Positions 61,760 through 64,000 of a DNA stretch of 64,000 bases are shown piece by piece. The notes beneath the pieces are model-generated. The model saw only the letters and a program-made list of their open reading frames with translations, ran no database searches and was not told the origin of the DNA. The stretch is from NCBI RefSeq assembly GCF_050920415.1, contig NZ_CP169309.1; one strand, written 5' to 3'. Made by a program: the position numbers and the translations under genes. This DNA comes from Escherichia coli. Lineage in GTDB: Bacteria; Pseudomonadota; Gammaproteobacteria; Enterobacterales; Enterobacteriaceae. The stretch's first letter is position 1, and every line of letters starts with the position of its first letter.

Positions 61760-62398
61760 ATGCCCGGGCGCTTTGAACTAAAACCAACCCTGGAGAAAGT
61801 CTGGCACGCGCCGGACAATTTTCGCTTCATGGACCCGCTACCGCCGATGCATCGTCGGGGGATCATTATTGCCGCTATTGTATTGGTGGTCGGATTTCTA
61901 CTCCCGTCGGATGATACGCCAAACGCGCCGGTGGTGACGCGTGAAGCACAGTTAGATATTCAGTCGCAATCACAACCGCCGACAGAAGAACAGCTGCGGG
62001 CGCAATTAGTCACACCACAAAATGATCCTGATCAGGTGGCTCCGGTCGCTCCAGAACCGATACAGGAAGGCCAACCGGAAGAGCAGCCGCAAACCTCGCA
62101 AGTGCAACCTTTCCAGCCAGATAGCGGAATTGACAATCAATGGCGCTCTTATCGTGTCGAACCCGGTAAAACAATGGCGCAGCTGTTCCGCGACCACGGA
62201 CTGCCCGCTACCGATGTCTATGCAATGGCGCAGGTAGAAGGCGCGGATAAGCCACTGAGTAATTTGCAAAATGGGCAGATGGTGAAAATCCGCCAGAACG
62301 CCAGCGGCGTGGTGACGGGCTTAACCATTGATACGGGAAATAATCAACAGGTTCTGTTTACCCGCCAGCCGGATGGCAGTTTTATTCGCGCGCGGTAG
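61760..62398 (+). CDS. ytfB: OapA/LysM-domain cell-division-associated protein
   Basis: 212-aa ORF from ATG at 61760 ([23 protein letters not shown]) with membrane anchor and Pro/Gln-rich linker. Confidence 0.85.
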
Positions 62399-63029
62399 AT
62401 GAAGGGTCAACCAGAAGCCAGCTAAGGATCGTCTCTTTGATGACCTTACGCCTGGCTTCCAGTGCCTGCGGTGAAACCATACTGATGTGATAAACCAGGC
62501 CAAGCGTATGTTGGTTGATCAAATAATATCCTCCAAGAGCAGCAATATTAATATTCACCTGCAACGGGTCGATATCTGGCTTAAAAATATTGCGCCGTTT
62601 GCCTTCAGCTAATAATGACTCCATTAACTGTAAGTGTGCGTGGTTAATTTCTAAAAGGCGCTGTGATTTTGCATAATGCACCCCTTTACTCTGGTTTTCA
62701 CTATGCACAATTTTTAAAAACCAGGGGTTAGCAATGTAATAATCCCAGGTGAAATCGATAATTTTCTCAATGGCTTTTTGTGGCGGAAGACCTGAGAAAT
62801 CAAGGGATTTTTCTTTTTGCCGAATATCATTCCAGGTATATTCCAGCACTTCGATAAATAAATTTTCTTTATTACCAAAGTGATGATAAACCGTCTGTTT
62901 ACTGCACTCCGCGGCCTTGACGATATTATCGACTCTGGCCCCTTCGTAACCATATTCGGCAAATTCATTAACCGCACATAACAACAGCTTTTCCTTCAGG
63001 CTTTGTACGTTGCTGGTATCAAGATACAT
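62382..63029 (-). CDS. TetR/AcrR-family transcriptional regulator (uncertain whether this is the ytfA locus)
   Basis: 215-aa ORF from ATG at 63029 ([58 protein letters not shown]), classic TetR N-terminal HTH; 3' end overlaps ytfB by 17 nt. Confidence 0.75.
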
Positions 63030-63151
63030 TCCGCTTCCCCACGTCTTCTTCGTGATGACTATCTTAACCCGATTTGTTAGAAGCTCCACTAAAATGGCTA
63101 AAAACTCGCAATTTCATCGGGTTATCAAATGCTCTGTGATCATTATCGCAT

Positions 63152-63173
63152 ATCAACCAACTAGATGGTTGAT
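63152..63173. promoter_or_regulatory. Candidate TetR operator in divergent intergenic region
   Basis: atcaacca actaga tggttgat, perfect 8-bp inverted repeat with 6-bp spacer. Confidence 0.5.
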
Positions 63174-63240
63174 CTTTCTTGCCACACATTGCAAGCTAAT
63201 CGTCACTTAAGGAAATAATATTCAAAAAGAGGGTTATTGT

Positions 63241-64000
63241 ATGAAGTCAACACGTCCTGTTGCTGTCATCACTGGAGCCGCACGTGGTATTGGAAAGGGC
63301 TGTGCACTGGAACTTGCGCGTGGCGGATTTAATCTGCTGATTAATGATCGTCCGGATGCCGACAGCGTAGAAAAATTACATGCCACACAACAAGAATGTC
63401 TGGCGGAAGGCGTGGAAGTGATTTGCTTCCCTGCTGATGTTGGCGATCTCTCCCTTCATGAAGAGATGCTCGACGCGGCGCAAAACCAGTGGGGACGTCT
63501 GGACTGTCTACTCAACAACGCAGGCATTTCAGTGAAAAAACGCGGTGACCTCCTCGACCTCGAACCAGACAGCTTCGACCAAAACATTGCCATTAACACC
63601 CGTGCGCCGTTCTTCCTTGCTCAGGCATTCAGTAAGCGATTACTGGCACAGCCGAAACCGGAAGCAGAACTGCCGCACCGCTCGATTATTTTTGTCAGTT
63701 CCATAAACGCCATCATGCTGGCGATGAATCGCGGCGAATATACCATTGCAAAAACTGCCGTCTCCGCCGCAGCTCGTCTGTTTGCCGCTCGCCTTTGCAA
63801 TGAACAAATTGGCGTTTATGAAGTGCGCCCTGGCCTAATCAAAACCGATATGACCATTCCGGCAACGGCTTATTACGACGAACTGATTGCTAAGGGGTTA
63901 GTGCCGTGGGGACGTTGGGGTTATCCGGCTGATATTGCCTCAACGGTCCGCGCGATGGCGGAAGGCAAACTGATTTACACCTGTGGTCAGGCGGTCGCCA
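63241..64000 (+). CDS. Short-chain dehydrogenase/reductase, 5' portion (runs off window end)
   Basis: My own translation from ATG at 63241: MKSTRPVAVITGAARGIGKGCALELARGGF... with TGxxxGIG and YxxxK (YTIAK) motifs; open to position 64000. Confidence 0.75.
   Translation, partial: MKSTRPVAVITGAARGIGKGCALELARGGFNLLINDRPDADSVEKLHATQQECLAEGVEVICFPADVGDLSLHEEMLDAAQNQWGRLDCLLNNAGISVKKRGDLLDLEPDSFDQNIAINTRAPFFLAQAFSKRLLAQPKPEAELPHRSIIFVSSINAIMLAMNRGEYTIAKTAVSAAARLFAARLCNEQIGVYEVRPGLIKTDMTIPATAYYDELIAKGLVPWGRWGYPADIASTVRAMAEGKLIYTCGQAVA

Follow-up and report, generated by a model that had tools for sequence, protein, structure and literature searches.

At the right edge of a 64-kb stretch of Escherichia coli DNA (64,000 nt of contig NZ_CP169309.1, hereafter the window, to which coordinates refer unless stated otherwise), a gene for a TetR-family regulator and a gene for a short-chain dehydrogenase (SDR) diverge from a 211-bp spacer (63030–63240), and this spacer contains a 22-bp palindrome that is conserved in its sequence, in its distance to the SDR gene and in its association with one type of TetR regulator. 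We consider it probable, at roughly 0.7, that the regulator, an intact form of ytfA, binds the palindrome and represses a catabolic operon headed by the SDR gene, in combination with control by the cyclic AMP (cAMP) receptor protein, CRP. The arrangement of TetR protein, operator and catabolic operon is in itself a standard one. The novelty lies in the candidate operator, in the consensus that it shares across phyla and in an unstudied pathway, common in natural E. coli, to which it points.

In the literature, ytfA appears in a survey as a TetR-family gene of some E. coli, and also of E. albertii and E. fergusonii (PMC6790063); our search for ytfA and yjfZ returned surveys only, together with a cell-division screen that used the K-12 fragment. 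The present analysis offers a concrete operator and promoter model for a gene that has been listed without an assigned site or target, since the laboratory strain keeps only a stump of it. It also explains the K-12 ytfA–yjfZ interval as the wreck of a nine-gene locus, and flags a conserved catabolic module, apparently CRP-linked and dependent on coenzyme A (CoA), that most natural E. coli, ST131 among them, share with related gut genera. The operator consensus could further be used to predict the targets of related regulators in other phyla, and a reporter placed on this operator could quickly reveal the inducer.

Sequence and conservation of the palindrome

A first-pass annotation of the window had described divergent TetR (minus strand) and SDR (plus strand, off the window edge) genes flanking a 211-bp intergenic region with a perfect, operator-like inverted repeat. 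Pfam matches and sequence motifs bear out both gene identities and the layout, and the spacer has the length given. The repeat is likewise present as ATCAACCA-N6-TGGTTGAT at 63152–63173, with perfectly matching arms at 63152–63159 and 63166–63173. Extended to a 22-bp palindrome, it pairs at 10 of 11 positions, and its AACCA and TGGTT cores stand 11 bp apart, that is, one helical turn. When the spacer was shuffled 5000 times with its dinucleotide content preserved, perfect repeats of 8 bp or more, separated by no more than 10, appeared 173 times (3.5%), so that such a repeat is by itself only mildly unusual, while a 22-bp palindrome with at least 10 of 11 pairs arose seven times. The whole 64 kb holds two palindromes of this quality, the second being a terminator at 9925. 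No further copy of the operator was found in the window at up to three mismatches, nor in the identical 25.7-kb locus.

The palindrome is real beyond chance because it is conserved across species, which we take as the decisive evidence. Ten orthologous spacers were aligned, from Escherichia lineages, Klebsiella (K. spallanzanii), Salmonella, Leminorella and two lineages whose TetR proteins are 58–63% identical to that of the window. Columns average 64% identity, against 95% for the best-conserved stretch of 22 columns (63155–63177), and AACCAAC.A..TGGTTG.TC is invariant. Within E. coli, spacer alleles are only 78–85% identical to the window, yet the palindrome differs among them at one inner base only.

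The palindrome also accompanies one type of regulator. The core AACCA-N6-TGGTT was counted 27 times in 1.47 Mb of collected loci, where base composition predicts 0.61, and almost every copy borders a gene that encodes a relative of the regulator. Within 400 bp of such genes (45.6 kb), 24 of 57 loci carry the exact core and 50 of 57 carry it with at most one mismatch; the rest of the loci (962 kb), which serve as a control, hold 2 and 18 such sites, respectively. The relatives that bear the core range from Enterobacterales to Alphaproteobacteria and one metagenome-assembled genome (MAG) of the Acidobacteria, down to 33–41% identity. Their neighbours vary: in Belnapia they are an NMT1-type binding protein and an ATP-binding cassette (ABC) transporter, in Mesorhizobium a DHDPS-family gene with a sugar ABC system, and in the Acidobacteria MAG an SDR–crotonase–CoA-transferase trio. 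The idea that the alphaproteobacterial relatives guard the same operon was rejected, as their neighbouring genes differ; these contexts are therefore of no use for inferring a substrate, but they make the link between regulator and operator stronger. The family consensus is TCAACCAAC(C/T)(G/A)GTTGGTTGA, that is, (AACC)2(GGTT)2, with one of the inner quarters degenerate in the enterobacterial sites. In several Alphaproteobacteria (loci L011, L014, L017, L039 and L051) the palindrome lies about 14–19 bp downstream of the end of the TetR gene, before the next gene, which in L014 is of the DHDPS family.

An independent line of evidence comes from Burkholderia pseudomallei, where chromatin immunoprecipitation sequencing (ChIP-seq) of the TetR_C_29 protein BP1026B_II1561 yielded the consensus TATnnGAACTAACTAGnT (PMC11358695). 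When both strands of the window were searched for this pattern at up to three mismatches, the sole match (12 of 15 specified bases) fell on the palindrome, at 63149–63166. Between the conservation, the co-occurrence with TetR relatives and this motif match, the operator-like character ascribed to the repeat at first pass is well founded. Our literature search did not find variants of the operator sequence.

Position of the site and a promoter model

Across all 11 Enterobacterales examined, Entomohabitans (locus L009) included, the centre of the site lies 75–81 bp from the SDR start codon. Its distance to the regulator start codon is about 133 bp in the window and 349 bp in Entomohabitans, whose spacer measures 423 bp. 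Because the distance to the SDR start is constant even with the longer spacer, the position of the site is tied to the operon and not to the regulator gene. The Entomohabitans spacer (L009, 9578–10000) carries about 210 extra G+C-rich bases on the regulator side, and its CRP-like site, operator and promoter block are intact beside the SDR gene.

Several elements of a rightward promoter can be proposed around the palindrome (Table 1). A CRP-like site just upstream of it matches the TGTGA-N6-TCACA consensus at 9–10 of 10 positions in all ten orthologous spacers, at the same position, and at 8 of 10 in Entomohabitans. The right operator arm contains a candidate −35 hexamer, TTGATC, which is followed by a CAnnnT block, the candidate −10; the gap between them is kept at exactly 17 bp, while its sequence is not conserved. 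Transcription of the SDR operon is predicted to start near 63204, which would place the CRP centre at −61.5, the canonical class I position, and the palindrome at about −52 to −31. A class II geometry, with a start near 63184 and GATCTT as the −10, may apply instead, although Entomohabitans has GATCCA at that place. Under either geometry the palindrome lies inside the core promoter region, and not outside the promoter, the finding that would have spoken against the first-pass reading. The site is thus most likely, in the first place, the operator of the SDR operon, because it overlaps the predicted −35 and keeps a fixed distance to the SDR start.

In the mechanism that we propose, a dimer of the regulator would bind the palindrome, between the CRP site and the rightward −10 and over the −35, and would there block RNA polymerase together with its contact to CRP, leaving the downstream operon off. 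An imported organic acid, or a CoA-thioester intermediate derived from it, would bind the C-terminal domain, whereupon the regulator would be released and the operon induced, with full expression also requiring cAMP–CRP. Release of a repressor by substrate, combined with a need for CRP, is the usual logic of catabolic operons.

Table 1. Features at the right edge of the window, in order of position
Feature	Coordinates	Strand	Basis or remark
ytfB, LysM/OapA-type cell-division protein	61760–62398	+	Convergent neighbour; PGAP coordinates of a 100%-identical genome
Intact ytfA-type TetR/AcrR regulator, 215 aa, helix-turn-helix (HTH) and TetR_C_29	62382–63029	−	Pfam, AlphaFold2 (AF2) model; K-12 homologue truncated
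Segment missing from K-12	62783–63329		HTH codons of the TetR gene, the full regulatory region and some 30 codons from the SDR start (blastn against the identical genome)
Second, wide inverted repeat, TAACCCGAT (63065–63073) and ATCGGGTTA (63116–63124)	63065–63124		Perfect 9-bp arms, 42 nt apart
CRP-like site TGTGATCATTATCGCA	63135–63150		9 of 10 positions of TGTGA-N6-TCACA; centre 63142.5; conserved position
Putative operator, palindrome ATCAACCAaCT/AGaTGGTTGAT	63152–63173		22 bp, 8+8 repeat with 6-bp spacer; sequence, conservation
Predicted −35 of the SDR-operon promoter, TTGATC	63169–63174	+	Inside the right operator arm; conserved in alignments
Predicted −10 of the SDR-operon promoter, CAAGCT (CATTTT or CATCTT in other genera)	63192–63197	+	C, A and final T invariant
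SDR ribosome-binding site, AAGAGGG	63226–63232	+	Direct sequence reading; GAG kept in the ten-spacer alignment
Classical SDR, first 253 codons (263 aa in full)	63241–64000	+	First operon gene; runs past the window edge

Weighing the alternatives

Several observations count against repression of the SDR operon through the palindrome. A simple sigma-70 scan of 62300–63300 called no promoter in the spacer, and the proposed −10, CAAGCT, is weak. The distant loci were found by HTH peptide patterns and are thus pre-selected for the same recognition helix, and they do not sample the family without bias; residues K44, Y48, H49, G52, N53 and K54 of that helix are invariant in the protein alignment, which for its part speaks for a correspondence between helix and operator. 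As to the effector, one can only guess: by sequence the neighbours are FadR and PfmR, which sense acyl-CoA, whereas by fold the nearest characterised protein is RutR, which binds uracil. Lastly, overexpression of BP1026B_II1561 was reported to raise slightly the expression of its direct targets (PMC11358695), so repression is not guaranteed.

The first-pass annotation had called the repeat typical of TetR autoregulation, and of that description the operator-like site stands, while the geometry fits the SDR operon and not the regulator gene. Were the palindrome mainly autoregulatory, the regulator would repress its own leftward promoter and control of the operon would be secondary or shared, much as in the overlapping tetR/tetA promoters. 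The genes are divergent, a leftward TTGATA hexamer is found at 63128–63123, and in distant relatives the spacers are too short (119 bp in L010, about 75 bp in L036) for a single site to avoid either promoter, all of which keeps this a serious, if unlikely, alternative in the window. Set against it is the contrast between the variable distance to the regulator start and the constant distance to the SDR start. Moreover, the palindrome coincides with no leftward promoter that is conserved; of the −10-like elements that face left, the best (63066–63061; TATGAT in most orthologues, TAAGAT in the window) lies about 100 bp from the palindrome, and a search of the spacer for a convincing conserved promoter of the regulator gene identified none. 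Autoregulation through the palindrome is thus possible but unsupported by the geometry in Enterobacterales, whereas in the relatives with 75–120-bp spacers it is likely.

An activating or co-activating role of the regulator at the palindrome, in place of repression, appears improbable. Most TetR proteins divergent to catabolic operons are repressors, and the position of the site, over the predicted −35 and between CRP and polymerase, favours occlusion. What speaks for activation is the intrinsic weakness of the window promoter and the behaviour of the only TetR_C_29 member that our search found studied, which bound two spacers and whose overexpression raised the adjacent genes by a log2 of 0.5–1 (PMC11358695). 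Less probable still is that the palindrome serves another factor or is a mere RNA hairpin, a terminator or a chance repeat. A terminator scan does flag 63152–63173 followed by CTTTCTTGCC, the sequence folds at −9 kcal/mol (z = −2.95), and a perfect 8-bp repeat by itself is found in the 3.5% of shuffles noted above. However, both arms are invariant and not covarying, no Rfam match was returned for 62000–64000, the core accompanies genes for TetR relatives across phyla and among unrelated neighbours, and the palindrome matches an independently derived ChIP-seq motif. A Rho-independent terminator was rejected specifically, given a stem with G–C pairs at 3 of 8 positions, the tail CTTTCTTG, the conservation, and the lack of any co-directional gene, on the plus strand, that ends upstream.

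The regulator

The minus-strand gene is, by domain architecture and by comparison with K-12, the intact form of ytfA, a TetR regulator of the TetR_C_29 subgroup. In a Pfam profile search the protein matched TetR_N (PF00440) at residues 19–61 with 50.3 bits (cut-off 24) and TetR_C_29 (PF17938) with 105.3 bits (cut-off 26.2), the latter over profile positions 1–119 of 119. An AF2 model is all-helical with 11 helices (mean predicted local distance difference test score, pLDDT, 91.5), and the top 50 Foldseek matches displayed from the PDB are all TetR-family or TetR-like, with the uncharacterised DIP1788 nearest and E. coli RutR second. None of the named TetR equivalogs fits: 17 of 17 NCBIfam matches (FadR of Bacillus, RutR, BetI, AcrR, AcuR and others) fall far below their cut-offs, the best being FadR at 44.2 bits against a cut-off of 200 (E = 1.7e-11). 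Sequence matches in the PDB are 5gpa, 5gp9, 3vpr and 3whb, and orthologues carry the label ‘KstR2’ in some annotation pipelines. An acyl-CoA or a free acid is a plausible effector by analogy, fitting a CoA-dependent pathway. Two further leads, 7VPF and SMc04130, were followed and nothing was gained from them.

The regulator and its site can be compared with several known systems. BP1026B_II1561 shares the PF00440 and PF17938 architecture and binds a spacer beside catabolic-type genes, among them one for a ‘phthalate permease’ of the major facilitator superfamily (MFS) (PMC11358695). It differs in that its targets are shikimate dehydrogenase, dehydroquinate dehydratase, the permease and a porin, in that it is encoded away from these targets, and in the mild up-regulation reported for it; its likeness to the window regulator was judged by domains and motif. 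RutR, the second-best fold neighbour (TM-score 0.76–0.83), recognises the box TTGACCAnnTGGTCAA (PMC2475637), which has the ACCA/TGGT half-site of the window palindrome but with its halves 4 bp closer. It is about 20% identical to the window regulator, its effector is uracil, and the NCBIfam RutR models score 36 against 368 bits. The acyl-CoA-sensing TetR proteins (Bacillus FadR/YsiA, Thermus PfmR, KstR2) provide the best sequence matches, and the window operon encodes CoA-dependent enzymes; nevertheless, the scores are far below family cut-offs (44 vs. 200 bits) and the operator differs. TetR/tetO and QacR offer a parallel in layout: regulator and target diverge, and a 22-bp palindrome, with one helical turn between its cores, overlaps a core promoter. 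In the window, by contrast, the target is a catabolic operon with a CRP-like site and not an efflux gene, and the operator is far from the regulator start.

The operon headed by the SDR gene

The SDR frame opens at the ATG at 63241 and is still open at 64000; its full length was taken from a genome 100% identical to the window over 62300–64000. The translation contains the motifs TGAARGIG, NNAG and YTIAK and matches adh_short with 126 bits, and so qualifies as a classical SDR. Its RefSeq name, ‘3-ketoacyl-ACP reductase’, stems from NF009386/PRK12745, which it passes (400.9 vs. 250 bits). The reading of the protein as the FabG of fatty-acid synthesis was rejected, since it scores 115.3 bits on TIGR01830 against a cut-off of 297.75 and its operon context is catabolic.

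The first-pass annotation had paired the regulator with the SDR. A divergent SDR gene is indeed its neighbour, yet not a lone partner, for in the identical genome it heads eight co-directional genes, after which comes rplI. Following the SDR, these encode an AP_endonuc_2/xylose-isomerase-like TIM-barrel protein (gene 2), a crotonase (gene 3), a fused family-I CoA-transferase of YdiF/FadX type (gene 4), a 693-aa flavoprotein related to SdhA, NadB and TfrA (gene 5), and three subunits of a tripartite ATP-independent periplasmic (TRAP) transporter (genes 6–8). Synteny of the five enzyme genes extends to E. whittamii, E. albertii, Klebsiella, Salmonella, Leminorella, Entomohabitans and the lineages with regulators of 58–63% identity; in most of these other lineages, an ACS-family MFS transporter of the D-galactonate-transporter subfamily stands in place of TRAP. 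Searched against NCBIfam, the operon proteins gave only generic or below-cut-off matches and no specific curated family. For the TIM-barrel protein, all matching structures are uncharacterised apart from distant matches to IolI and ketose 3-epimerases; a PDB search at 1e-10 yielded no relative of the flavoprotein, whose homologues carry generic names only. This combination of genes was not found described in our literature search.

Taken as a whole, the gene content suggests that an organic acid is taken up, activated through transfer of CoA and then processed by beta-oxidation-like or ring-type reactions. Two weak leads to the substrate exist: the sugar-acid flavour of both transporter types and the binding of the Burkholderia relative beside quinate/shikimate-type genes. 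As to the first, the closest solved structures of TRAP binding proteins may be ones that bind uronates. We tentatively suggest, well short of even odds, that the operon specifies a CoA-dependent pathway not yet described, for an organic acid that comes from the diet or the host (for example a sugar acid, or a hydroaromatic acid of the quinate/shikimate type). Over half of E. coli strains, and many Salmonella and Klebsiella, would then possess this pathway, which would have gone unstudied because K-12 deleted it, and a TetR_C_29 group spanning several phyla would share (AACC)2(GGTT)2 as its operator.

Some variation within the operon deserves mention in its own right. The uptake module is interchangeable, being TRAP QMP in most E. 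coli (L001, 19021–21845) and ACS-family MFS in E. whittamii, Klebsiella, Salmonella and Leminorella (loci L005, L053 and L085–L088, at about 2200–3700). The flavoprotein is the least conserved enzyme within Escherichia, at 86–92% against 94–99% for the other four. Where the regulators diverge most, in two lineages, the MFS gene is followed by one for a flavodoxin (L087, 1663–2175; L088, 1642–2163), which may be a redox partner of the flavoprotein.

K-12 and the distribution of the locus

The intact locus is found in 3133–3140 of 5426 complete E. coli genomes (about 58%); ATCC 8739 and ST131 isolates are examples of carriers. Genomes of the K-12 type match the window only up to 62782. There, the ytfA remnant comprises the C-terminal 133 codons, with 97% amino-acid identity by tblastn, and is annotated in RefSeq as a TetR/AcrR pseudogene of 133 codons ‘missing N-terminus’. 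Six bases past the breakpoint lies a 102-bp SDR relic, 81% identical to 63330–63431 (L002, 4490–4591), which is followed by yjfZ (DUF2686); homology then resumes at the rplI terminator. Because this relic stands beside the ytfA remnant, the K-12 ytfA–yjfZ spacer is best read as the scar of the deleted operon. The K-12 interval agrees with the locus of the window in its position (ytfB on one side, rplI on the other) and in its convergent overlap of 17 nt with ytfB, but it is without the HTH, the regulatory region and the operon, and has yjfZ instead. By these alignments, K-12 is a decayed descendant of the locus.

The suggestion in the first-pass annotation that K-12 has a ytfA pseudogene here and that the window carries the intact version has therefore proved correct, in the form of a 5′-truncated pseudogene with an SDR relic beside it; the alignment to K-12 reveals remnants only, and not identical intact genes. 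The overlap of the regulator gene with ytfB, tail to tail and 17 nt long, is also as described there, at 62382–62398.

Elsewhere, the ytfB–rplI interval is variable. O157 has IS609 inside the ytfA remnant (L003, 2146–4295), and in strain 14EC033 an IS1 element and an MFS transporter gene replace the whole locus (L004, 4158–6134). The window is about 95.6% identical to K-12 across ytfE–cycA–fklB–ytfB (58300–62782), and only 18 of 5417 matching E. coli records reach at least 99% identity to it over 62300–64000. Its source thus looks like a divergent E. coli lineage, not a mainstream phylogroup.

Other features of the window

The gene order at the right edge of the window is cycA (−), fklB (−), ytfB (+), the TetR open reading frame (ORF) (−), the spacer and the SDR ORF (+). 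On the regulator side of the spacer sits the second, wide inverted repeat of Table 1, for which the minus-strand RNA fold gives z = −2.3. In E. whittamii both arms have changed and the repeat persists, whereas in E. albertii it is disrupted and genera other than Escherichia lack it; with conservation limited to part of this genus, it plays no part in the model. The second strong palindrome of the window, at 9925–9946, is a perfect G+C-rich 22-bp repeat, AGGCCGGAGCATGCTCCGGCCT, followed by a T-run. It lies between convergent ORFs of 951 aa on the plus strand and 407 aa on the minus strand, as an ordinary bidirectional terminator.

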